DNA of 24,000 nucleotides from Pseudomonas delhiensis (GCF_900187975.1 NZ_FZPC01000008.1:27930-51929); one strand, 5' to 3'; numbered from the stretch's first letter, positions 2,783-13,444 are shown. The notes: a model not told the origin generated them from the letters alone. Translations and numbers: made by a program.

Positions 2783-2810
2783 TCCCCTACCCCGACCCGC
2801 TAAGGTCCCC

Positions 2811-4676
2811 ATGCCCAAACGCCTGTTGCCATGGCTGGCGCTGTGCGCCTGCGCATCCCTGCACGCGAGCCCCCAATTCCCCGAATCCCGCCTCCAGGCC
2901 CTGGCCGCGCAGCCCTACTGGCTGGCCCTGGGGCACTACACGCCGAGCAAGCTGGGCGGCTGGCGCAGCTTCGTCGACGACGACCGGTTCTTCCTCGCCG
3001 ACGACGGCGAGCGCTCGCCCGAGCACGAGCTCAAGGCCACCCTGGACGCCCTCTACGCCGCCCCCGACCTGGGCGACAAGCATGCCCAGTGCGTCTACCC
3101 GGCGCGCACCCGCTGGCTGAAGCAGCAACTGCAGCTGACCGACCTGCCGCGCCCCGCGTGCCAGGAGTACGACACCTGGTACGGCGACATCAACCCGCAC
3201 AGCGCGGTGCTGGTGTTCCCCGCCGCCTACCTGAACAGCCCCTCGTCGATGTTCGGCCACACCCTGCTGCGCATCGACCAGGCCGACGTCGACAGCAACA
3301 ACACCGCCCTGCTCAGCTACGCGCTGAACTTCGGCGCCTTCATCGAGGGCATGGACAACAGCATCCTCTACGCCTGGAAGGGCCTGATGGGCGGCTACCC
3401 CGGCCTGTTCGCCCTGGTGCCCTACCGCGAGAAGCTCTCCGAATACAGCCGCCTGGAGAACCGCGACCTCTGGGAGTACCGCCTGAACCTCACGCCCGAA
3501 GAGACCGGGCGCATGGTCGAGCACGTCTGGGAGCTCAAGCAGGTCCGCTTCAAGTACTTCTTCTTCGACGAGAACTGCTCCTTCCGCCTGCTCGAACTGC
3601 TGGAGATCGCCCGCCCCGGGGTGAAGCTGACCGACGGATTCCCGCTCTACGCCATCCCCACCGACACCGTGCGCGCGGTGAAGCAGGCCGGGATGATCGA
3701 CAGGATCGACTACCGCCCCTCGCGGGAGAAGGAACTGCTGGCCCGCGCCGAGCCGCTGGACACCGGCGAGAAACAGCTGGCCCGGCGCCTGGCCGACGAC
3801 GACCGCCTGCTCGACAGCCCCGAATTCAAGGCCCTGCCCGCGCCGCGCCAGGCGCTGGTGCAGGACACCGCCTTCCGCCTGCTGCGCTACCGCGCCACCG
3901 GCAAGGCGCGCGACGAGGCCGATGCCGCGCGCAGCTACCAGTTGCTGCGGGCGATCAACCAGAACCCGCCGCCGCCGGCCCGGGTGGAGCGCCCCGGGCA
4001 ACCGGAGGAAGGCCACCAGTCGCTGACCTGGCAGCTCGGCGCCGGCAGCCGCGACGGCCAGGCCTTCGCCGACTACGGCCTGCGCATGGCCTACCACGAC
4101 CTGCTGGACAACAGCTACGGCTTCCCCCAGGGCGCGCAGCTGGAGCTGGGCGACCTGCGCCTGCGCCAGTACGAGGGCAACCGCTGGCAGCTGCAGCGCC
4201 TGGACCTGGTCAGCATCCGCTCCATGACCCCGCGCAACGCCCTGTTGCAACCGCTGTCCTGGCAGGTCACCGGCGGCTGGGAGCGGGTGCCGGGCAAGCA
4301 CAGCGACGACGGCCACGACACCCTGGCCGGCCACGTCAACGGCGGCGCCGGCGGCAGCTGGAAGCTCGCCGACGACCTGCAGGCCTACGCCCTGGGCACC
4401 GCACGGATCGAAAACAACCCCGACTTCGCCGCCACAGTGGCGCCGGCGCTGGGCTTCGACACCGGCGTGCTCTGGCGCAACCCGCTGGGCAACCTGGCCC
4501 TGGAGGCCAAGGGCGACTACTTCCACAACGGCGAAGTGCGCCGCAGCCTGAGCCTCGGCCAGCAGGTGGAACTGAGCCGCAACCTCGGCCTGCGCCTGTC
4601 CGCCGAACGCCAGTTCAGCCACCAGGCCGGGCCGGTCGGCGAGGTCATGCTGGAACTGCGCTGGTACCATTACTGA
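2811..4676 (+). CDS. DUF4105 (Lnb N-terminal-like) periplasmic/outer-membrane-associated protein
   Basis: 621 aa with signal peptide MPKRLLPWLALCACASLHA. The central SSMFGHTLLRID...YALNFGA...GGYPG...YRL block matches the DUF4105 family as I recall it. The C-terminal alternating, beta-rich segment ends in ...LELRWYHY, which looks like an OM beta-barrel terminus. Confidence 0.75.
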   Translation: MPKRLLPWLALCACASLHASPQFPESRLQALAAQPYWLALGHYTPSKLGGWRSFVDDDRFFLADDGERSPEHELKATLDALYAAPDLGDKHAQCVYPARTRWLKQQLQLTDLPRPACQEYDTWYGDINPHSAVLVFPAAYLNSPSSMFGHTLLRIDQADVDSNNTALLSYALNFGAFIEGMDNSILYAWKGLMGGYPGLFALVPYREKLSEYSRLENRDLWEYRLNLTPEETGRMVEHVWELKQVRFKYFFFDENCSFRLLELLEIARPGVKLTDGFPLYAIPTDTVRAVKQAGMIDRIDYRPSREKELLARAEPLDTGEKQLARRLADDDRLLDSPEFKALPAPRQALVQDTAFRLLRYRATGKARDEADAARSYQLLRAINQNPPPPARVERPGQPEEGHQSLTWQLGAGSRDGQAFADYGLRMAYHDLLDNSYGFPQGAQLELGDLRLRQYEGNRWQLQRLDLVSIRSMTPRNALLQPLSWQVTGGWERVPGKHSDDGHDTLAGHVNGGAGGSWKLADDLQAYALGTARIENNPDFAATVAPALGFDTGVLWRNPLGNLALEAKGDYFHNGEVRRSLSLGQQVELSRNLGLRLSAERQFSHQAGPVGEVMLELRWYHY

Positions 4677-4693
4677 GGCGTGCGGCGCCTCAG
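4673..4693. terminator. Hairpin shared by the convergent DUF4105 and rtcR genes, spanning both stop codons
   Basis: CTGAGGCG (4673-4680), loop TGCGG, CGCCTCAG (4686-4693): 8-bp perfect stem. The TGA of the + gene (4674-4676) and the TGA of rtcR (complement of 4690-4692) both lie inside the stem arms. Confidence 0.4.
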
Positions 4694-6294
4694 CCCTTCA
4701 CGGCCGCCCAATCCAGCCGGAAGCGCGCCAGGTACTTGCGCAGACGATCGGCGTCATTGGGGTTATGCTTCTCCTGGCGCGACACCGCGAACAATTGGCG
4801 GCCGGCGTCGGACAGGCTGCGCGCCTGCCGGCAGACGTCGATCACCGCCTCCAGTTGCAGGCGGTCGAACAGGTCCAGTGCCTCGGCGCCCTCCCCCAAC
4901 AGCTGCCGCACGGCACCTTCCGCTTGCGCGATACCCCAGGAGCGGCGCAGGCGGCCGATCTCTTCCTCCACCAACGCTTCGTCGATGCGCCCGCTGTCGG
5001 CCAAGGTCGCCATGCGCGTGATGGAGGCCGACAGCTCGCGGAAGTTGCCGCTCCATAGCGCCTGCGCCGAGTTGGCGAAAGCCAGGTAGCGCGTGCGCGC
5101 CTCGCGGTTGAAGCGCACCAGGCGGCCCTGCTCGCGGGCATGGCGCTCCAACTCGAAATCAATGTTCGGCTCGATGTCTTCACGACGCCCGGCCAGGCCC
5201 GGCAGGTCGAAGGTCCAGAGGTTGATACGGGCGAACAGGTCCTCGCGGAACAATCCTTCGGCCACACGCTCTCGCAAGTCGCGGTGAGTGCCGGCAATCA
5301 GTTGGAAGTCGCTGCTGACCTCGCGGTCCGAGCCAAGCGGGAAGAAGCGCTTTTCCTCGATGGCCTTGAGCAGCATGGCCTGCTCGTCCAGTCCCAGCTC
5401 GCCGATCTCGTCGAGGAACAGCATGCCGCCATTAGCCCCGCGTAACAGGCCTTCCCGGGAGTTCTGCGCGCCGGTGAAGGCGCCCTTGACGTGGCCAAAC
5501 AACGCGGACATGGCGCCATCACCACGCAGCGTCGCGCAGTTCACTTCGACGAAGCGGCCCTGGAACTGGTGCCGGGCGCGTTTGAGTTCGTACACGCGGC
5601 GGGCGAGGAACGACTTGCCGGCTCCGGTCGGACCGATCAGCAGCATCGGCGCACAGGAGCGCCCGGCGACCCGCTCGATCTGCTCGATGGAGCGGTTGAA
5701 CTCGGCATTGCGCGTGGCGATGCCAGACTTGAGAAAGGCCAGGCTCTCTTCCTGTTCGCGGCGGAACCGCGTGGCGATGCGGTCGTAACGCGACAGGTCG
5801 AGGTCGATCAGCGTCACCGTCCCTTCCGGGTGCCGAGCCTCGTCCTTGCGCCGCGACGGCGAGGCCTGCACCAGCCGCGCCGGCAGGTAGCGCGCCTCGG
5901 TCAGGAGGAACCAGCAGATCTGCGCGACGTGAGTCCCGGTGGTGATGTGTACCAGGTAGTCCTCGCTCTCGGTATCGAAGGTGTAGCCGCCGACGAAATC
6001 GTGCAGCGCGCCGTAGACCTCTTCGAAGTCCCAAGGGTTGCGCAAGGCCATGGGTTGCAGGCGCACCTCGGTCTCCGGCGAGACGTGCCGCACGTCGGCG
6101 GCGATGCGCTCGGCCAGGCTGACGTCCCGCGCATCCAGGCCGTGGATCAGCTCCAGGCGATCGATCAGCAGGTCCTGCTGCTGGCACAGGCCAACCGTGG
6201 GCCGCCACTTCTGCCAGCGCGCTGCGCCCTTGCCGACGCGGTCCAGAGTGGAGCCGAGGAAACCGATGGCGACGGTCTTGCGTCCTGCGGACAT
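4690..6294 (-). CDS. rtcR: Sigma54-dependent transcriptional activator RtcR
   Basis: The N-terminus MSAGRKTVAIGFLGSTLDRVGKGAARWQKWRPTVGLCQQQDLLIDRLELIH parallels E. coli RtcR (MRKTVAFGFVGT...RWSKWRPT...). The central AAA+ domain has Walker A GPTGAGKS and the sigma54-contact loop GAFTGA (KGAFTGAQ). It is divergent from an rsr-rtcB-rtcA operon. Start at 6294 chosen because AGAGGG lies 6 nt upstream; 6300 (ATG) and 6312 (TTG) are alternatives. Confidence 0.9.
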   Translation of the reverse strand: MSAGRKTVAIGFLGSTLDRVGKGAARWQKWRPTVGLCQQQDLLIDRLELIHGLDARDVSLAERIAADVRHVSPETEVRLQPMALRNPWDFEEVYGALHDFVGGYTFDTESEDYLVHITTGTHVAQICWFLLTEARYLPARLVQASPSRRKDEARHPEGTVTLIDLDLSRYDRIATRFRREQEESLAFLKSGIATRNAEFNRSIEQIERVAGRSCAPMLLIGPTGAGKSFLARRVYELKRARHQFQGRFVEVNCATLRGDGAMSALFGHVKGAFTGAQNSREGLLRGANGGMLFLDEIGELGLDEQAMLLKAIEEKRFFPLGSDREVSSDFQLIAGTHRDLRERVAEGLFREDLFARINLWTFDLPGLAGRREDIEPNIDFELERHAREQGRLVRFNREARTRYLAFANSAQALWSGNFRELSASITRMATLADSGRIDEALVEEEIGRLRRSWGIAQAEGAVRQLLGEGAEALDLFDRLQLEAVIDVCRQARSLSDAGRQLFAVSRQEKHNPNDADRLRKYLARFRLDWAAVKG

Positions 6295-6332
6295 GAACAT
6301 CCCTCTATCCAATTTGATAAAATCCTATCCCA

Positions 6333-6356
6333 ATAGATCTAAATATCGATAGATCT
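6333..6356. promoter_or_regulatory. Two copies of ATAGATCT, 16 bp apart: candidate RtcR upstream activating sites
   Basis: ATAGATCT occurs at 6333-6340 and 6349-6356, each with a palindromic AGATCT core, about 95-117 bp upstream of the -24 element. CTATCC also occurs twice (6304-6309, 6325-6330). The assignment to RtcR is inferred from position only. Confidence 0.35.
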
Positions 6357-6407
6357 CGATCACCGAAAAATCCACCCATGTCACTCGAAAATAAAATTAA
6401 TTTTAAA

Positions 6408-6420
6408 AATCAATAAGTTA
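6408..6420 (+). promoter_or_regulatory. IHF binding-site consensus match
   Basis: AATCAATAAGTTA fits WATCAANNNNTTR at every specified position. It lies in a 27% GC stretch (16 G+C counted in 6361-6420), between the candidate UAS and the -24/-12 element, which is the usual sigma54 promoter layout. Confidence 0.55.
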
Positions 6421-6449
6421 AAAATAATTCACGGCTCAAAAATCAAACC

Positions 6450-6465
6450 TGGCACGCTGCCTGCT
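6450..6465 (+). promoter_or_regulatory. Sigma54 (-24/-12) promoter of the rsr-Y RNA-rtcB-rlaP-rtcA operon
   Basis: TGGCACGctgcCTGCT compared with the consensus TGGCACG-N4-TTGCW. GG is at 6451-6452 and GC at 6463-6464, giving the exact 12-nt spacing. It is about 40 nt upstream of the rsr ATG and divergent from the sigma54 activator gene rtcR. Confidence 0.8.
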
Positions 6466-6506
6466 CTATCTCTGGCAACACCAACGAAACAGAGCGAGAC
6501 GGCAAG

Positions 6507-8057
6507 ATGGCCAACACCCGACTGTTCAATACTCTCGATGCCCGCCTGCCGGCCATCGACACCTGCAACCAGAACGGAGCGGGTGCCTATGCCTACGGCG
6601 CACGTCATCAACTGGCGCAGTTGGCAGTCACCGGTTGCCTGAACCAGACCTATTACGCCGATGCCCAGGACCAACTGGATCGCGTACTGGCCCTGGCCAG
6701 CGAGCTGGACGCCGCCTTCGTCACCCGCACGGCGATCTATGCCCGTCAGCAGGGCCACATGAAGGACATGCCTGCGCTGCTGGTAGCGGCTTTGGCGGCA
6801 CAGCGCTCGTCCCTGCTGCCGAGCGCGTTCGCCAAGGTGATCGACAACGGCAGGATGCTGCGCACCTTCGTGCAGATTCTGCGCAGCGGCGCGACTGGCC
6901 GTAAATCGCTGGGCTCGCAGCCCAAGCGACTGGTGCAGGACTGGCTCAACAACGCCAGCGAGCGTCAGTTGCTGCAGGCCGCGGTGGGACGCCAGCCTTC
7001 GCTGGCCGACTTGGTGAAGATGGTTCACCCGAAGCCGAATACGGCCTGGCGCGCAGCCTTCTTCGCCTGGCTGCTCGGCAAACCGGTGGCTGCCGACGCT
7101 TTGCCGCCGCTGACGCGGGACCTGCTGGCCTTCCGCAGCGGAGCCAGCGATGAGCTGCCGGATGTGCCGCACCTGCTGTTGGGCAACCGTCAGTTATCGG
7201 CACAGCAATGGGCCGAGTTGGGCCGGCGCATGGGCTGGCAGGCGTTGCGGATGAACCTGAATACCCTGGCCCGCCACGGCGCACTGGCGTTGCCGGGCGT
7301 GGCAGAAGAGCTGGCGGACCGGTTGGCCGATGCGCAGGCAGTGGCGAAGGCGCGGGTCTACCCGTACCAGTTGCTGACGGCCTATCGCATGGCCGGCGCA
7401 GATGTGCCGCAAGTCATCCGCAATGCCCTGCAGAGCGCGCTGGAACATTCGCTGCAGAACGTACCGGCGCTGAAAGGCTCGGTGGTGGTTTGCCCGGACG
7501 TGTCCGGCTCCATGGGCAGCCCGGTGACGGGTTACCGCCAGGGCGCGACGACAGCGGTGCGCTGCATCGATATCGCAGCGCTGGTCGCCGCGGCGATCCT
7601 GCGTCAGCAGCCACTGGCTCGGGTGATGCCGTTCGAGCGCGATGTGGTGAACGTGCAGCTCAACCCGCGTGACAGCGTGATGAGCAACGCCGGCAAACTG
7701 GCAGCCATCGGCGGCGGAGGCACCAACTGCTCCGCACCGCTGGCACGGCTGGCCGACGAGCGCGCCAGGGTGGATACGCTGATCCTGGTTTCGGACAACG
7801 AATCCTGGATTGATGGAAAACGCCACGGCGCAACGCAAACGCTGCACCAGTGGGAACGTATCAAGCGCGTCAACTCGCAGGCCCGGATGATCTGCATCGA
7901 CATCCAGCCCTACGGTACTACGCAGGCGAAGGATCGCCAGGACATCCTCAACGTCGGTGGTTTCGGCGATGCGGTGTTCGATGTGATGACGCAGTTCGCC
8001 GACGGTCGCTACGACGCACGGCACTGGGTACGGATGATCGAGTCGATGGAGATTTGA
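6507..8057 (+). CDS. rsr: Ro60-related protein Rsr (TROVE domain plus C-terminal vWA domain)
   Basis: 516 aa. The N-terminal two thirds resemble a TROVE domain (NQNGAGAYAY...LAQLAVTGCLNQTYYA...AIYARQQGHMKDMPALLVA). The C-terminus has the vWA/MIDAS motif VVCPDVSGSMGSP and later ILVSDNESW. Position between rtcR and rtcB is the same as Salmonella rsr. Confidence 0.88.
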   Translation: MANTRLFNTLDARLPAIDTCNQNGAGAYAYGARHQLAQLAVTGCLNQTYYADAQDQLDRVLALASELDAAFVTRTAIYARQQGHMKDMPALLVAALAAQRSSLLPSAFAKVIDNGRMLRTFVQILRSGATGRKSLGSQPKRLVQDWLNNASERQLLQAAVGRQPSLADLVKMVHPKPNTAWRAAFFAWLLGKPVAADALPPLTRDLLAFRSGASDELPDVPHLLLGNRQLSAQQWAELGRRMGWQALRMNLNTLARHGALALPGVAEELADRLADAQAVAKARVYPYQLLTAYRMAGADVPQVIRNALQSALEHSLQNVPALKGSVVVCPDVSGSMGSPVTGYRQGATTAVRCIDIAALVAAAILRQQPLARVMPFERDVVNVQLNPRDSVMSNAGKLAAIGGGGTNCSAPLARLADERARVDTLILVSDNESWIDGKRHGATQTLHQWERIKRVNSQARMICIDIQPYGTTQAKDRQDILNVGGFGDAVFDVMTQFADGRYDARHWVRMIESMEI

Positions 8058-8062
8058 AAAGC

Positions 8063-8090
8063 CGTGCTCCGCCAATGAGGGCGGAGCACG
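8063..8090 (+). other. 11-bp perfect hairpin immediately after the rsr stop
   Basis: CGTGCTCCGCC (8063-8073), loop AATGAG, GGCGGAGCACG (8080-8090). It starts 6 nt after the rsr TGA and has no downstream U-tract (CGACAGAATGAATTTCG follows). Confidence 0.5.
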
Positions 8091-8110
8091 CGACAGAATG
8101 AATTTCGCGG

Positions 8111-8229
8111 CGTCATGAATGCCGTCGGGACTACAGGTGAAGCCAGGCCGGCCCTGCCGGTACGAGCGAGCAGGTTCGAGCCCTGCGGCGCGCTTGCGCG
8201 ATAAAGTCCCGGCGAACCTGGTCATGACG
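8111..8229 (+). ncRNA. Y-RNA-like module 1 (T-arm present, no D-arm)
   Basis: Terminal helix CGTCATGA (8111-8118) with TCATGACG (8222-8229). GAATGC at 8117-8122. Second helix CGTCGGGAC (8123-8131) with GTCCCGGCG (8206-8214), including one G.U pair. TACA at 8132-8135. Hairpin CCGGC-CCT-GCCGG (8148-8160). T-arm GCAGG-TTCGAGC-CCTGC (8170-8186). CGCG-CUUG-CGCG capped helix (8189-8200). Confidence 0.6.
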
Positions 8230-8235
8230 AAGCGA

Positions 8236-8321
8236 GGCACGAATGCGCACGGGTGTACATGGTCCAGCCGGTTCGACTCCGGCCCGCAGCGATGCGGATC
8301 ACTCGCGCACCTTGTCGTGCC
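8236..8321 (+). ncRNA. Y-RNA-like module 2 (T-arm present, no D-arm)
   Basis: Terminal helix GGCACGA (8236-8242) with TCGTGCC (8315-8321). GAATGC at 8241-8246. Second helix 8244-8248/8305-8309 and 8251-8255/8300-8304, with an AC bulge. TACA at 8256-8259. T-arm GCCGG-TTCGACT-CCGGC (8267-8283). CCGCA-GCGA-TGCGG helix closed by a GNRA tetraloop (8284-8297). The 3' flank is CCTTGTCG. Confidence 0.6.
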
Positions 8322-8340
8322 ATCCTTGTTGCAACGTTAT

Positions 8341-8471
8341 GCGACGAATGCCGGTGGAACTACACCCTTCCACGGTCGAGATGCGGGTTCGAGTCCCGTC
8401 GGCTCCAATATCAGGGGGGCCGTAGTTCAATGGCAGAACACGAAAATACGTTTCACCCCCCTTGTCGTCGC
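8341..8471 (+). ncRNA. YrlA-like Y RNA module 3 with permuted tRNA-like core
   Basis: Terminal helix GCGACGA (8341-8347) with TCGTCGC (8465-8471). GAATGC at 8346-8351. Second helix GGTGGAAC (8353-8360) with GTTTCACC (8450-8457). TACA at 8361-8364. T-arm GCGGG-TTCGAGT-CCCGT (8383-8399). Loop-closed acceptor-like helix CGGCTCC (8400-8406) with GGGGCCG (8416-8422). TA (8423-8424), then D-arm GTTC-AATGGCA-GAAC (8425-8439). Confidence 0.7.
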
Positions 8472-8500
8472 ACCTTTTCACCCCGCCAGGCCGGCGGACA

Positions 8501-8608
8501 GGCAACGAATGCCTGGGGCAGTACATCGGGTCGCGGGTTCGACCCCCGCTCCGCTCAAACGGGTAGCTCAGTCGGTAGAGCAGATCTGTCCCTCATCTCG
8601 TCGCTGCC
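8501..8608 (+). ncRNA. YrlA-like Y RNA module 4 with permuted tRNA-like core
   Basis: Terminal helix GGCA+ACGA (8501-8508) with TCGT (8598-8601) and TGCC (8605-8608), plus a CGC bulge (8602-8604). GAATGC at 8507-8512. Second helix GGGGCAG (8515-8521) with CTGTCCC (8586-8592). TACA at 8522-8525. T-arm GCGGG-TTCGACC-CCCGC (8533-8549). Short closed helix TCCG-CTCAAA-CGGG (8550-8563). TA, then D-arm GCTC-AGTCGGTA-GAGC (8566-8581), which has the same sequence as a canonical tRNA D-arm. Confidence 0.7.
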
Positions 8609-8635
8609 CCGGCCACACACGAATCTTCGGCATTG

Positions 8636-8765
8636 CCTTGGCGAATGCCGGTGGAACTACATGGACGGAAAGGTTGTGGGTTCGAATCCCGCCGGCTCCT
8701 GGAGCCGTAGCTCAATCGGATAGAGCGCTCTGCACGTTTCACCAGAAACTTGTCGCCATGCAAGG
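8636..8765 (+). ncRNA. YrlA-like Y RNA module 5 with permuted tRNA-like core
   Basis: Terminal helix CCTT+GGCGA (8636-8644) with TCGCC (8753-8757) and AAGG (8762-8765), plus an ATGC bulge (8758-8761). GAATGC at 8643-8648. Second helix GGTGGAAC (8650-8657) with GTTTCACC (8736-8743). TACA at 8658-8661. T-arm GTGGG-TTCGAAT-CCCGC (8676-8692). Closed acceptor-like helix CGGCTC-CTG-GAGCCG (8693-8707). TA, then D-arm GCTC-AATCGGATA-GAGC (8710-8726). Confidence 0.7.
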
Positions 8766-8788
8766 CCAGTGACACAGGAACGAGAGAG

Positions 8789-10009
8789 ATGAACATGAAA
8801 ACCTTCCAGCTACTGGAGGTCGCCAACGGCAAACCGATCAAGCTCTGGACCCAGGGCGTACCGGTGGAAGAAGACGCCAGGCAACAGCTGATGAACACCG
8901 CGAAGATGCCCTTCATCTTCAAGCACCTGGCCGTGATGCCGGATGTGCACCTGGGCAAGGGTTCGACGATAGGCAGCGTGATCCCTACCAAGGGCGCCAT
9001 CATTCCGGCTGCCGTGGGCGTAGATATCGGCTGTGGGATGATCGCCGCGCGTACCTCGCTGGTAGCTTCGGACCTGCCGGACAACCTGCATCACCTGCGG
9101 ACAGCCATCGAGAAGGCCGTGCCCCACGGCAAGACCTTCGGCCGCCGCGACCAGGGCGCCTGGGAAGACGTGCCCGCACACGCCGACGACGCGTGGCGTG
9201 CATTGGCCGGACGCTTCAAGGCGATCACCGACAAGCACCCGAAGCTGGAGAAGACCAACAACCGCAAGCACCTGGGAACCCTCGGCACCGGCAACCACTT
9301 CATCGAAGTCTGCCTCGACGAGGCCGACCGCGTCTGGTTCATGCTGCACAGCGGATCGCGCGGCGTGGGTAACGCCATCGGCAACCTGTTCATCGAACTG
9401 GCCCAGGCCGACATGCGCCAGCACATCGCCAACCTGCCAGACCGTAACCTGGCCTACTTCGAAGAAGGCAGCCAGCACTTCGATGACTACGTGGAAGCCG
9501 TGGGCTGGGCCCAGGACTTTGCCCGGCAGAACCGCGAGCTGATGATGCGCGCGGTGATCGCCGCCGCGCGGCAGGTCATCCGCAAACCGTTCGAGGCCAG
9601 CCTGGAAGCGGTGAACTGCCACCACAACTACGTGCAGAGGGAACGCCACTTCGGCGAAGAGGTGTTGGTGACGCGCAAGGGCGCGGTATCCGCGCAGAAA
9701 GGCCAGCTCGGCATCATTCCCGGCTCGATGGGCGCCAAGAGCTTCATCGTCCGCGGCCTGGGCAACGAGGAAGCCTTCTGCTCCTGCAGCCACGGCGCCG
9801 GCCGCACCATGAGCCGGACCAAGGCCAAGAAGCTGTTCAGCGTGGAAGACCAGGTGCGCGCCACCGCCCATGTCGAATGCAGGAAGGACAAGGACGTAAT
9901 CGACGAGATCCCCATGGCCTACAAGGACATCGACGCAGTGATGGAGGCCCAGCGCGAGCTGGTGGAAGTGCTGCACACCCTGCGCCAAGTGGTGTGCGTG
10001 AAAGGATGA
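8789..10009 (+). CDS. rtcB: RNA-splicing ligase RtcB (3'-phosphate/5'-hydroxyl RNA ligase)
   Basis: ...KLWTQGVPVEEDARQQLMNTAKMPFIFKHLAVMPDVHLGKGSTIGSVIPTKGAIIPAAVGVDIGCGM is nearly colinear with E. coli RtcB as I remember it, and CSCSHGAGR lies near the C-terminus. Start is ATG 8789 (MNMKTF..) or ATG 8795 (MKTF..). The track start at 8750 would overlap Y-RNA module 5 and is rejected. Confidence 0.92.
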   Translation: MNMKTFQLLEVANGKPIKLWTQGVPVEEDARQQLMNTAKMPFIFKHLAVMPDVHLGKGSTIGSVIPTKGAIIPAAVGVDIGCGMIAARTSLVASDLPDNLHHLRTAIEKAVPHGKTFGRRDQGAWEDVPAHADDAWRALAGRFKAITDKHPKLEKTNNRKHLGTLGTGNHFIEVCLDEADRVWFMLHSGSRGVGNAIGNLFIELAQADMRQHIANLPDRNLAYFEEGSQHFDDYVEAVGWAQDFARQNRELMMRAVIAAARQVIRKPFEASLEAVNCHHNYVQRERHFGEEVLVTRKGAVSAQKGQLGIIPGSMGAKSFIVRGLGNEEAFCSCSHGAGRTMSRTKAKKLFSVEDQVRATAHVECRKDKDVIDEIPMAYKDIDAVMEAQRELVEVLHTLRQVVCVKG

Positions 10010-10021
10010 AAGGAATTACCC

Positions 10022-10822
10022 ATGAACAGGGAAGAACGTCATCCACTCCCCGCCGCCATGCGCGAGCGGGTACTGGAGGAACTGAAGAAACTGGAGCAGG
10101 AGCGCGACGTAAGCGTGCTCTATGCCTGCGAATCCGGCAGCCGTGCCTGGGGATTCGCCTCGCCGGACAGCGACTATGATGTGCGCTTCGTCTACGTGCA
10201 TCAGCCAGACTGGTATCTGCGCGTGGAAGAGCCGCGCGACGTGCTGGAGCGCCCACTGACCGACGAGCTGGATCTCAGCGGCTGGGAGCTGCGCAAGACA
10301 CTACGGCTGCTACGCAAATCCAACCCGACGCTGCTGGAGTGGCTGGATTCGCCATTGGTTTACCGCAGCGAAACCGAGGCGACCGACGGACTTCGCCAAC
10401 TGGCGCAAGCCTTCTACTCACCCGCTGCCGCCCGCGCCCACTATCTGTCGATGGCGCGGAAGAACTTCCGTGGCTACCTGCAGGGCGACGAGGTTCGCTA
10501 CAAGAAATACCTCTACGTGCTGCGTCCACTGCTGGCCGTCCGCTGGATAGACCTGGGCCTCGGCATGCCGCCAATGGTATTCGAGACGCTGATGGAAGCG
10601 ACGCTGAAGGACGCCGCCGAGCGCGCTGAAGTCGAAGAGCTGCTGGTACTCAAGCGTCAGGCCGTCGAGGCCGAATACGGTCCCGCGCGCCCAGCCCTGC
10701 ATCGGCTGATCGAGGCAGAACTGCAACGCGCGGAAACCCTTGGCGCACCCCGTGGTGGCTGCCACGGTACGGAGCGCCTGGATCGCTTTCTGCGCGAACA
10801 GGTAAGGAAGTACGCAAGATGA
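10022..10822 (+). CDS. Pol-beta-superfamily nucleotidyltransferase, RlaP-like (RNA-ligase-associated)
   Basis: 266 aa. The N-terminal motif ESGSRAWGFASPDSDYDVRFVYV is a G-S...D-x-D minimal nucleotidyltransferase signature. It matches my memory of the COG3541/PF10127 'RNA repair pathway DNA polymerase beta family'. The gene sits between rtcB (13-nt gap) and rtcA (4-nt ATGA overlap). Confidence 0.7.
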   Translation: MNREERHPLPAAMRERVLEELKKLEQERDVSVLYACESGSRAWGFASPDSDYDVRFVYVHQPDWYLRVEEPRDVLERPLTDELDLSGWELRKTLRLLRKSNPTLLEWLDSPLVYRSETEATDGLRQLAQAFYSPAAARAHYLSMARKNFRGYLQGDEVRYKKYLYVLRPLLAVRWIDLGLGMPPMVFETLMEATLKDAAERAEVEELLVLKRQAVEAEYGPARPALHRLIEAELQRAETLGAPRGGCHGTERLDRFLREQVRKYAR

Positions 10823-11844
10823 ACAAGAACATGATCGAACTCGACGGTGCCGAAGGCGGTGGACAGATACTGCGCAGCGCGCTGAGCCTGGCGATGATCA
10901 CCGGCAAGACGCTGCGCATCGTCAACATCCGTGGCCGGCGCTCGCGGCCGGGACTGTTGCGCCAGCACCTGACGGCGGTACGAGCGGCGGCGAAAATCTG
11001 TGGTGCGACGGTGGAGGGCGCGGAGCTGGGCTCCCTCAACCTGACCTTCCGACCGGGTGCGATTCGCGGCGGTGATTACCATTTTTCCATCGGCAGCGCG
11101 GGTAGCGCCGTGCTGGTTTTGCAGGCAGTGTTGCCTGCGCTGCTGTACGCCGACGGCCCAAGCAGCCTGTCGATCAGCGGCGGCACGCACAATCCGCTGG
11201 CGCCGCCGGCGGACTTCATCGAGCACAGCTGGTTGCCGCTGCTGCGACGCATGGGGGCAAAGGTCGACTTCGAACTGCTACGCCACGGCTTCATGCCCGC
11301 GGGCGGCGGCGAACTGGCAATGCGAGTGGAGCCGGGCGAGTTGCAGCCGTTGCATCTGCCGGAAGCCGGAACCGAACGTTCACGTTCGGCCCGCGCCTTG
11401 CTCGCGGCCATTCCCGGCCATGTGGCGGACCGCGAACTGGAGCGGGTGCGCCGCCATGCGGATTGGCACACAGCGGCCACGCAGGTCGTGCGCCTGCCGG
11501 ACGACCAGGGGCCAGGCAACGCACTGCTGCTGGAGATCGAATGCGAGCACCTGAATCTGGTGTTCTGCGCTTTCGGCCAGTCCGGCGTGAGCGCGGAGCG
11601 GGTCGCCAGTCAGGCGCTGCGCCAGGCCGCCGACTGGTGCGACAGCGGCACCAGCACCGAGGAACACCTGGCCGACCAATTGTTGCTGCCCATGGCGCTG
11701 GCCGGCGGCGGAAGCTTCACCACTCCGGCGCTGAGCGACCATCTGCTGAGCAACCGGGCGGTGATCGAAGCCTTCCTGCCGGCACGCATCGATTGCGAAG
11801 CGCGCGCGAAGGGCGGCCAGTACATCCACATCACGCCAGTTTGA
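10819..11844 (+). CDS. rtcA: RNA 3'-terminal phosphate cyclase RtcA
   Basis: IELDGAEGGGQILRSALSLAMITG...RPGLLRQHLTAVRAAAKICGATVEGAELGS...GGDYHFSIGSAGSAVLVLQAVLPAL...GGTHNPLAPPADF is colinear with E. coli RtcA. The EEHLADQLLLPMALAG block contains the expected nucleophilic His. The start overlaps the upstream stop (ATGA at 10819-10822). Confidence 0.92.
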   Translation: MNKNMIELDGAEGGGQILRSALSLAMITGKTLRIVNIRGRRSRPGLLRQHLTAVRAAAKICGATVEGAELGSLNLTFRPGAIRGGDYHFSIGSAGSAVLVLQAVLPALLYADGPSSLSISGGTHNPLAPPADFIEHSWLPLLRRMGAKVDFELLRHGFMPAGGGELAMRVEPGELQPLHLPEAGTERSRSARALLAAIPGHVADRELERVRRHADWHTAATQVVRLPDDQGPGNALLLEIECEHLNLVFCAFGQSGVSAERVASQALRQAADWCDSGTSTEEHLADQLLLPMALAGGGSFTTPALSDHLLSNRAVIEAFLPARIDCEARAKGGQYIHITPV

Positions 11845-11930
11845 CGCTTTCCTCACGAAACGCCGGCTAGAGTGCCGCCCAGTCACCCTATCCGGCACGT
11901 GAGCCCGCCCCTTGGCACACGGGAGTCTCC

Positions 11931-12295
11931 ATGGCGCTGCGCGCCGCCCTTGACCTGCTTTGCGCCATGCTGCTAGCGGGCTGCGAAACCACCCACGACT
12001 TACTTATCGCCCAGGGCTACCCCTGCCCGCCTATGCCGACGGCTACAACGCCGGCTGCGACAGCGGCCGCCAGGCCGCCGGCACCATCACAACCGGGGCT
12101 TTCCGCAAGGACGTGCTGCGCTACCTGAAGGAGGCGACCTACGCCCAGGGCTGGGGTGATGGCTACGAGCAATGCCGGCGCCCGGCCGAGAGCGAAGAGC
12201 GCCAGCGCTACGAGGACGCCCGCGGCAACCACCACGAGCATGACTGGCGGCAACAGAAGGACCGCGCCCTGGGCCAGGCGCTGCGCGGTGAATGA
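11931..12295 (+). pseudogene. Small lipoprotein gene interrupted by an apparent 1-nt frameshift near 12020-12023
   Basis: The frame starting at 11931 encodes MALRAALDLLCAMLLAGCETTHDLLIAQGYP: a lipobox LLAGC, GGGAG 5 nt upstream of the ATG, and high GC3. After TAC CCC (12018-12023) GC3 falls in this frame. It becomes high in the frame of ORF 11960..12295 (...PLPAYADGYNAGCDSGRQAAG...WGDGYEQC...). Before 12020 that second frame uses GC3-poor codons (CAT GCT GCT ... CGA CCA CGA CTT ACT TAT). One additional C in the CCCC run at 12020-12023 would join the two halves. Confidence 0.55.
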
Positions 12296-12335
12296 GCCTG
12301 CGGCAAAGCTCCGCACCCCACCGCATGCCGCGGGC

Positions 12336-12349
12336 TTGATCCCGGTCAA
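12336..12349 (+). promoter_or_regulatory. Anr/FNR box upstream of ccpR
   Basis: TTGATcccgGTCAA matches TTGAT-N4-ATCAA at 9 of 10 specified positions. Its centre is about 80 nt upstream of the ccpR ATG, which fits a class II site at -41.5 with a ~38-nt leader. Confidence 0.5.
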
Positions 12350-12421
12350 TTCCCGCCCTCGTCGCCTGGCCTCTCCTTGAATCAGGAAAAACCAATAGCC
12401 TGATAACGAGGAGATCACTCC

Positions 12422-13444
12422 ATGCAGCCCCTGAAACTGGCCCTGGGCGGCCTGTTGTTGGCCGCCAGCAGTACCGCCGCACACGCCGACGCCCTGCGCG
12501 ACCAGGCCAACGCCATCTTCAAGCCCATCCCCGAACAGGTGGCCGGGCTGGATGCGGCCCAGGTGGAGCTGGGCCGCCAGTTGTTCTTCGAGCCACGCCT
12601 GTCGGCCAGCCACGTGATCAGCTGCAACACCTGCCACAACATCGGCACCGGCGGCGCCGACAACGTGCCCGCCTCCAGCGGCCACGCCTGGCAGAAAGGG
12701 GCGCGCAACTCGCCGACGGTGTTCAACGCCGTGTTCAACATCGCGCAGTTCTGGGACGGCCGCGCCAAGGACCTGGAGGAACAGGCCAAGGGGCCGGTGC
12801 AGAACCCGGTGGAGATGCACAACACGCCGAACAACGTCGAGGCCACGCTCAAGAGCATGCCCGAGTACGTGGCGGCCTTCGGGAAGGCCTTCCCCGGCGA
12901 CAAGCAGGCGGTGAGCTTCGACAACATGGCCCGCGCGCTGCAGGCCTTCGAATCGACGCTGATCACCCCCGACTCGCGCTTCGACCAGTACCTCAAGGGC
13001 GACGACAAGGCCCTGGACGCCAAGGAGAAGAAAGGGCTGCAGGCCTTCATGAGCGCCGGCTGCATCAGCTGCCACAACGGCGTGAACCTCGGCGGCCAGG
13101 CCTACTTCCCGTTCGGCCTGGTGAAGAAACCCGATGCCAGCATCCTGCCCAGCGGCGACAAGGGCCGCTTCGCGGTGACCAAGACGCAGAACGACGAATA
13201 CGTGTTCCGCGCCGCGCCGCTGCGCAACGTGGCCCTCACCGCGCCCTACTTCCACAGCGGGCAGGTGTGGGACCTGGAGGAAGCGGTGACGATCATGGGC
13301 ACCGCGCAACTGGGCAAGCAGCTGGATGCCGGCGAAGTGGGCGACATAGTCGCCTTCCTCAAGACCGTCACCGGCAAGCAGCCCCAGGTGCAGTACCCGC
13401 TGCTGCCGCCGAGCACCGCCACCACGCCGCGTCCGGTGGATTGA
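12422..13444 (+). CDS. ccpR: Di-haem cytochrome c peroxidase (cytochrome c551 peroxidase)
   Basis: 340 aa with signal peptide MQPLKLALGGLLLAASSTAAHA. It has two CxxCH haem motifs (CNTCH, CISCH) and family blocks FFEPRLS, GARNSPTVFN, QFWDGRA, GPVQNPVEM, APLRNVALTAPYFHSG. GAGGAG Shine-Dalgarno upstream. Confidence 0.9.
   Translation: MQPLKLALGGLLLAASSTAAHADALRDQANAIFKPIPEQVAGLDAAQVELGRQLFFEPRLSASHVISCNTCHNIGTGGADNVPASSGHAWQKGARNSPTVFNAVFNIAQFWDGRAKDLEEQAKGPVQNPVEMHNTPNNVEATLKSMPEYVAAFGKAFPGDKQAVSFDNMARALQAFESTLITPDSRFDQYLKGDDKALDAKEKKGLQAFMSAGCISCHNGVNLGGQAYFPFGLVKKPDASILPSGDKGRFAVTKTQNDEYVFRAAPLRNVALTAPYFHSGQVWDLEEAVTIMGTAQLGKQLDAGEVGDIVAFLKTVTGKQPQVQYPLLPPSTATTPRPVD

Follow-up and report, generated by a model that had tools for sequence, protein, structure and literature searches.

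Does a locus that combines a Ro60-related protein and an array of tRNA-like RNAs with a ligase, a nucleotidyltransferase and a cyclase act as one regulated RNA-repair operon, and how far is its layout particular to its host? The question is raised by a 24,000-nucleotide (nt) stretch of Pseudomonas delhiensis DNA (NZ_FZPC01000008.1:27930-51929), which we call the window; the Pseudomonas genome that contains it measures 6.73 Mb and is split into 81 contigs. An earlier note on this DNA had named rtcR, a sigma54 promoter, rsr, a Y RNA array, rtcB, rlaP and rtcA as the components of the locus, and every one of them is present where it was placed. The set is complete and intact, and with the comparative evidence described below it makes it probable that this is an Rtc RNA-repair operon of the Pseudomonas chromosome, of the Rsr/Y-RNA type, driven as one unit by sigma54 and RtcR. 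For comparison, a scan with the Rsr protein, taking one genome per species, gave 80 related loci, to which tblastn with the five window proteins was then applied.

The promoter and its conservation are directly observed. By itself, the consensus match would carry little weight, because two sigma54 matches were found in the window against 2.6 expected, a number not above chance. However, TGGCA(C/T)-N8-TGC recurs upstream of rsr in 67 of the 80 loci, and it is this conservation that makes the promoter convincing. Its distance to rsr is 53-66 nt in pseudomonads, Chitinimonas and Rhodocyclaceae; in alphaproteobacteria and others it is mostly 85-135 nt. Further upstream lie two TATC-N6-GAT(A/C) dyads, whose cores show little or no variation across an alignment of 13 control regions regardless of cassette and which we infer to be candidate RtcR binding sites, together with an IHF-like site whose core (ATCAA-N4-TT) is retained in most of the same 13 regions. 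Indeed, dyads, IHF-like site and -24/-12 element are alike in these 13 loci whether rsr, tRNA-like genes with a Band-7 gene, or a lone YrlA stands downstream.

The proteins encoded on both sides of this control region are readily identified and intact. For RtcR, Pfam reports PF06956 over residues 11-197 (E 1.9e-85) and Sigma54_activat PF00158 (E 5.6e-49) plus the lid, while the NCBIfam equivalog NF038308 scores 846 bits over residues 11-539 against a cut-off of 650. The protein thus has an RtcR/CARF-like N-terminal domain, a sigma54-interaction AAA+ module and a C-terminal DNA-binding region. Its true start is probably ATG 6294, because the family alignment begins at residue 11 and the orthologue in a sister species (genome G005) starts at the corresponding ATG. 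Rsr exceeds the Pfam cut-offs for both vWA_Ro60 (68.5 bits) and TROVE (33.7 bits) and aligns over its full length to the Deinococcus radiodurans Rsr structure (PDB 2nvo, residues 28-533, E 6.9e-22), with DVSGSM kept. RtcB aligns to solved RtcB structures and retains the HGAGR motif with its nucleophile His; its likely start is ATG 8789, because the TTG at 8750 that opens the reading frame falls inside the fifth Y module. RlaP keeps the GS-x10-DYD motif of Pol-beta proteins and gave no match to solved structures in the PDB. RtcA aligns to E. coli RtcA (1qmh, E 1.9e-102) and keeps the His that corresponds to the nucleophile His309. Coordinates and family scores are collected in the table.

Table. 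Components of the Rtc locus in the window, and extra genes found between rtcB and rtcA in related loci (ORF, open reading frame; YrlA scores are for the Rfam model).
Feature	Coordinates	Strand	Description
rtcR	4690-6294	minus	sigma54 enhancer-binding activator with N-terminal RtcR (divergent CARF) domain; ORF reaches TTG 6312
TATC-N6-GAT(A/C) dyads (two)	6306-6320, 6326-6339	none	candidate RtcR sites, upstream of the -24 element by about 115-145 bp
IHF-like site	6408-6420	plus	AATCAATAAGTTA; between dyads and promoter
sigma54 -24/-12 promoter	6450-6464	plus	TGGCACGCTGCCTGC; consensus match, 57 nt upstream of rsr ATG
rsr	6507-8057	plus	Ro60-related protein; TROVE ring and vWA domain with DVSGSM MIDAS (metal-ion-dependent adhesion site) motif
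GC-rich hairpin	8063-8090	plus	11-bp stem, 6-nt loop, 6 nt past rsr stop
Y1	8112-8231	plus	YrlA 26 bits, E 0.0028; own model R1 30.7 bits; terminal helix with GAAUGC, T-arm-like hairpin, no D-arm
Y2	8236-8324	plus	YrlA 24.9 bits, E 0.0069; own model 37.9 bits; short, T-arm, no D-arm
Y3	8341-8474	plus	YrlA 54.6 bits, E 1.7e-11; own model 113.5 bits; T-arm, capped helix, D-arm
Y4	8502-8610	plus	YrlA 63.3 bits, E 5.2e-14; own model 91.3 bits; YrlA-type tRNA mimic
Y5	8638-8762	plus	YrlA 88 bits (gathering score 69), E 3.8e-21; ends 26 nt before rtcB ATG
rtcB	8789-10009	plus	3′-phosphate/5′-OH RNA ligase; PF01139, E 2e-131
rlaP	10022-10822	plus	Pol-beta-fold nucleotidyltransferase; PF10127 profile positions 1-248 of 249, E 5.8e-96
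rtcA	10819-11844	plus	RNA 3′-terminal phosphate cyclase; NF003246 467 bits (cut-off 352); start overlaps rlaP stop (ATGA)
Extra gene, locus L016	11504-12082		between rtcB and rtcA
Extra genes, locus L019	11461-12810, 13604-14515		between rtcB and rtcA
Extra gene, locus L105	1610-3418		between rtcB and rtcA

The region between rsr and rtcB is taken up by Y-RNA-like modules. An Rfam search at the gathering threshold, followed by a permissive search of positions 8040-8800 (761 nt), gave five non-overlapping modules within 8112-8762. All five carry the 5′ side of a terminal helix, (C/U)GA-AUGC, and a GGUUCGA T-arm; the 3′ side of the helix reads CUUG-UCG in Y2, Y3 and Y5 and occurs as variants in Y1 and Y4. 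D-arms are confined to Y3-Y5, so that the hallmarks of YrlA (a terminal Ro-binding helix, a tRNA-like T-arm and D-arm, and rsr as a neighbor) are found together in these three modules. Y1 and Y2 resemble YrlB only in layout, as short partners lacking a D-arm, and the YrlB score of Y2 (RF02565; 26 bits) lies well below the threshold of 97. The predicted fold of Y1 includes a closing stem, and a fold was also obtained for Y2. ARAGORN found no tRNAs in the window, so the modules are not canonical tRNAs. Two ORFs that run across the array (8119-8772 and 8253-8723) were rejected as coding, since the region is filled by structured RNAs with covariation.

That covariation is directly observed. A covariance model built from Y3-Y5 and one orthologue finds all five window modules as well as 316 modules in the 80 related loci. 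In an alignment of the 141 distinct best modules, which was fitted to the covariance model and so favors the structure, pairing holds in 95.6% of cells, as compared to 35-57% when the partners are slid, and compensatory changes occur at 25 of 27 pairs. Single-sequence minimum free energy folds of Y4 and Y5 are no better than those of shuffled sequences (z about -0.4); for these two modules, it is therefore the covariance model and covariation that support the structure, and folding energy does not.

The modules are not recent copies of one another. Within the window they are 48-69% identical, and each of Y2-Y5 finds its closest match in the module that takes its place in the arrays of other genera. 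For example, identity is 73-87% between Y2 and the second modules of relatives and 79-94% between Y4 and their fourth modules. Even in loci whose Rsr is just 75-76% identical, Y2 retains 73-78% identity and Y4 and Y5 retain 79-83%, while Y3 reaches 91-96% nucleotide identity to the third module of such pseudomonad loci (L017, L019, L021, L025 and L052), which makes it much more conserved than the other four. A long counterpart of Y1 is present only in the nearest relative, locus L016, whose Rsr is 95% identical; the others have a stem of about 57 nt in its place. Judged from these identities, the five Y RNAs diverged long ago into distinct paralogues, and the conservation of Y3 across genera suggests a division of labor among them.

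How are these parts expressed? The comparative evidence is all consistent with co-transcription from one sigma54/RtcR promoter, and we consider this reading well supported, because the promoter position is conserved, the control region stays constant across cassettes, the gaps between genes are short, and neither a terminator nor a second promoter was detected. The earlier note had put the space between rtcB and rlaP at 13 nt; it measures 12 nt, with an AAGGA Shine-Dalgarno sequence ahead of rlaP. Its ATGA overlap of rlaP and rtcA is present at 10819-10822. Its statement that the unit holds no internal promoter or terminator apart from a hairpin after rsr also agrees with our scans: no terminator-like site was detected on the plus strand in 4400-12500, no sigma70-like site on the plus strand from the sigma54 promoter down to 12500, and the hairpin itself is real. 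The second sigma54-like match of the window (8760-8774) was discarded as an internal promoter since it lies on the minus strand. Minus-strand ORFs such as 2787-4670 and 12017-13309 were likewise not accepted as genes, having no family match and lying opposite real genes.

Several observations weigh against the proposed operon or some part of it. Rsr scores only 87.9 bits with the NCBIfam RNA-bind_Rsr equivalog, for which the cut-off is 900; a score so far below the cut-off places the window protein on a diverged branch of the Ro60/Rsr family. Similarly, Y5 alone of the five modules reaches the gathering score of Rfam YrlA (RF02553), which is 69 bits. The promoter and terminator scans used simple consensus patterns, which weak internal promoters may escape. 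Four RNA sequencing runs that share the species label of the best DNA holder gave 0, 1, 0 and 0 reads, which amount to no test of co-transcription. Finally, no terminator is predicted after rtcA, leaving the 3′ end of the unit open, and the next gene, at 11931-12295, encodes a small lipoprotein on the same strand.

The small lipoprotein gene shows a peculiarity of its own. Two ORFs that overlap (11931-12128 and 11960-12295) make up its sequence, and matches in relatives to the second of these cover only residues 23-110, which suggests a possible frameshift or mis-set start.

The hairpin after rsr raises the most serious alternative, that expression of the locus is divided among at least two units. 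In that case, the sigma54 promoter would serve rsr and perhaps the Y RNAs, the hairpin would terminate or attenuate transcription, and rtcB-rlaP-rtcA would be expressed from an undetected internal promoter or by regulated read-through. The structure stands immediately 3′ of rsr and is very stable (-24 kcal/mol, z -5.4), and a GC-rich hairpin of other sequence (8-10 bp stem, mostly 6-nt loop) occupies the equivalent place in 12 of 17 pseudomonad-type loci. So strong and conserved an element could reduce read-through, and the cell is expected to need Rsr, Y RNA and enzymes in differing amounts. However, the hairpin is not followed by a U tract and is missing from compact fluorescens-type loci of identical gene order. 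Moreover, the plus strand between 6500 and 8790 contains neither a sigma54 nor a sigma70 consensus, and in sister species G005 and in three Band-7-type loci that were examined (described below) the sole recognizable promoter again adjoins rtcR. We therefore consider separate units unlikely. Within the single unit that we prefer, the probable role of the hairpin is in processing or stability, not in termination, and it would at most be an attenuator.

Is the layout peculiar to this host? The synteny is directly observed to be conserved. Indeed, rtcR on the opposite strand followed by rsr, rtcB, rlaP and rtcA in the window order was found in 33 of the 80 loci, including Metapseudomonas otitidis, several Ectopseudomonas and Phytopseudomonas, fluorescens-group Pseudomonas, Chitinimonas, Andreprevotia, a metagenome-assembled genome of Rhodocyclaceae and several Sphingomonadales. 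Approximately 31 further loci have an equal order without rlaP. Linkage of rsr, Y RNAs and rtcB extends to about 64 of the 80, spread over several classes, and the gap between rsr and rtcB holds two to six Y modules almost everywhere. For example, loci of Metapseudomonas, Ectopseudomonas and Phytopseudomonas (Rsr 75-76% identical) have four or five modules when counted by motif, and the types follow one another as they do in the window. The earlier note had presented the locus as a more elaborate version of the E. coli and Salmonella operons. It is indeed more elaborate than either; it is not unusual, since those 33 loci share the five-gene order with a Y array.

In fact, the interval between rtcB and rtcA holds additional genes in many relatives (coordinates of examples are in the table), and the window has none. 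These genes encode a 192-residue protein without a Pfam family (nine loci), HEAT-repeat proteins of about 450-675 residues (approximately 13 loci) and a protein of about 300 residues, also without a family. The nearest relative has the 192-residue gene between rtcB and rlaP, and its absence here marks the window, on gene content, as a compact version within its family of loci rather than the most elaborate. The locus is thus a good example of a known system, its layout being widespread and all of its parts being present in the literature (Chen 2014; Hughes 2020; Carruthers 2025; Burroughs & Aravind 2016 as cited in other papers).

Closer to home, the picture changes. A survey of 33 other species of the genus revealed an RtcR orthologue in 24 (84-95% identity) and RlaP in 15, of which 14 are at 88-94% identity, while Rsr was present in two, only one of them orthologous. 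The rsr/Y cassette is therefore a minority form in the genus of the window. What most of the other species have instead is one or two abutting tRNA-like genes, located just past the sigma54 promoter, about 290-430 nt from the rtcR start, in 22 of the 24 species with RtcR (rtcR loci L109-L132; L103 6567-6711). ARAGORN calls them Arg-ACG/TCG, Leu-AAG, Ser-TGA/CGA or reports abnormal loops, and the calls vary by species. In three such loci that were examined downstream, the tRNA-like genes are followed by an SPFH/Band-7 protein, a treble-clef zinc protein and then rtcB. Sister species G005 shows a third arrangement: a lone YrlA (128 bits with our own model), the orthologue of Y5, sits between the promoter and rtcB (L105, about 4900-5030, minus; L005 1497-1622, minus), and no Rsr was found in its genome with the window Rsr as query. 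With the YrlA placed directly between that sigma54 promoter and the ligase gene, rtcB would be read through a Y RNA there. Sister species also share the flanks, namely a DUF7843/Lnb_N/DUF7840 gene (2811-4676 in the window, plus) on one side and, on the other, the small lipoprotein gene and a MauG/MbnH-like di-haem peroxidase gene (12422-13444, plus). With the same flanking genes in the sister species, this is a single chromosomal locus that takes alternative cassettes rather than a mobile island. As a separate observation, one species of the genus (genome G043) has, besides its Band-7-type rtc operon, a further and diverged pair of rtcR and rsr (47% and 43% identity) on another contig (contig 43; L107 709-3960).

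These arrangements invite a bolder interpretation, to which we give only slight credence. The slot between the constant RtcR/sigma54 region and rtcB would be one in which three cassettes are exchanged: Rsr with five Y RNAs; tRNA-like genes, followed in three loci by the Band-7 and treble-clef genes; and a lone YrlA. In that case, RtcB would have a tRNA-shaped RNA, and not Rsr, as its constant partner. On one reading this RNA would be a decoy or reporter, cut by tRNA-cutting toxins, whose cyclic-phosphate fragments would feed back on the CARF domain of RtcR or be repaired first. Whatever its function, the genus offers a clean natural comparison, in which site, control region and enzymes are constant and three tRNA-mimic cassettes alternate, and cassette-swap genetics in close strains is a practical route to the function of the tRNA-like RNAs and their protein partners.

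That the rsr/Y cassette is instead a recently acquired passenger in an rtcB-rlaP-rtcA operon, acting independently of the ligase and serving, for instance, RNA decay linked to PNPase as it does in Deinococcus, seems to us very improbable. It would fit the rarity of rsr in the genus, the backbone genes at 84-97% identity to those of sister species against 75-76% for the nearest Rsr beyond the pair, and the D. radiodurans Rsr that works with PNPase (PMC7790460). But Metapseudomonas and Ectopseudomonas share cassette, site and chromosomal flanks with the window, the linkage of rsr, Y RNAs and rtcB spans several classes as noted above, and a tRNA-like RNA fills the slot in 25 of 25 rtc loci of the genus, which argues for a role shared with RtcB.

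How might the single operon work? In Salmonella, 5′ tRNA halves ending in a 2′,3′-cyclic phosphate are bound by the CARF domain in RtcR, which oligomerizes so that the operon is transcribed, and RtcA activity feeds the signal (PMC7790460). By analogy, the divergently transcribed RtcR of the window would sense such halves through its CARF-like N-terminal domain, would oligomerize, probably on the two TATC-N6-GAT dyads with IHF-assisted bending, and would open the promoter at 6450-6464. A single primary transcript would encompass rsr, the five Y modules, rtcB, rlaP and rtcA; the Y RNAs would be cut out of it, and the conserved hairpin after rsr would probably shield the rsr 3′ end. YrlA is a tRNA mimic that binds Rsr (PMC4201824), and the Y RNAs of the window may likewise bind Rsr via their conserved terminal helix (CGA-AUGC / CUUG-UCG).

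The enzymes would then act on RNA ends. RtcA is expected to make cyclic-phosphate ends, and RtcB to join 3′-phosphate or cyclic-phosphate ends to 5′-OH ends, mainly of tRNA and rRNA. RlaP, whose gene stands between those for RtcB and RtcA in P. fluorescens and P. aeruginosa, extends RNA 3′-OH ends by one or two nucleotides, prefers damaged RNA and is required to restore aminoacylation of over-trimmed repaired tRNA (bioRxiv 10.64898/2025.12.29.696909); here it would add one or two nucleotides to trimmed 3′-OH ends. The ribonucleoprotein (RNP) of Rsr and Y RNA presumably contributes to substrate handling or RNA quality control. The preprint bioRxiv 10.1101/312249 credits Burroughs & Aravind 2016 with a Band-7-associated tRNA and its functional redundancy with YrlA, which agrees with our survey of the genus.

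Comparison with known systems sets the locus in context. Its closest counterpart is the rtcR / rsr-yrlBA-rtcBA locus of Salmonella Typhimurium (Chen 2013/2014; Hughes 2020, PMC7790460), with which it shares a divergent CARF-like RtcR, a sigma54 promoter before rsr, Y RNAs including the tRNA mimic YrlA between rsr and rtcB, and then rtcB and rtcA. It differs in having five Y modules rather than two, in two classes (three with a D-arm and two without), in having rlaP between rtcB and rtcA, and in an Rsr too diverged for the NCBIfam equivalog cut-off. With the rtcR / rtcB-rlaP-rtcA operons of P. fluorescens and P. aeruginosa (Carruthers et al. 2025 bioRxiv; PMC8619066) it shares the genus group, the rtcB-rlaP-rtcA core, the divergent RtcR and the RlaP family PF10127, whereas an rsr/Y-RNA cassette is not described in either source. 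The Band-7 / b7a-tRNA RtcB operons (Burroughs & Aravind 2016, cited by bioRxiv 10.1101/312249) have in common with the window the control region, chromosomal site, downstream enzymes and a tRNA-like RNA just past the promoter; they have an SPFH/Band-7 protein and a treble-clef zinc protein in place of Rsr, and near-canonical tRNAs with odd or variable anticodon loops in place of Y RNAs. Finally, the Rsr-Yrn1-PNPase RNP of Deinococcus radiodurans shares a Ro60 orthologue (2nvo) and a T-arm-like element in the RNA, and its Y RNA binds through a conserved terminal helix, as is proposed for the window. Unlike the window locus, the Deinococcus RNP is not linked to rtcB/rtcA, is not under RtcR/sigma54 control, and has its role in RNA decay.

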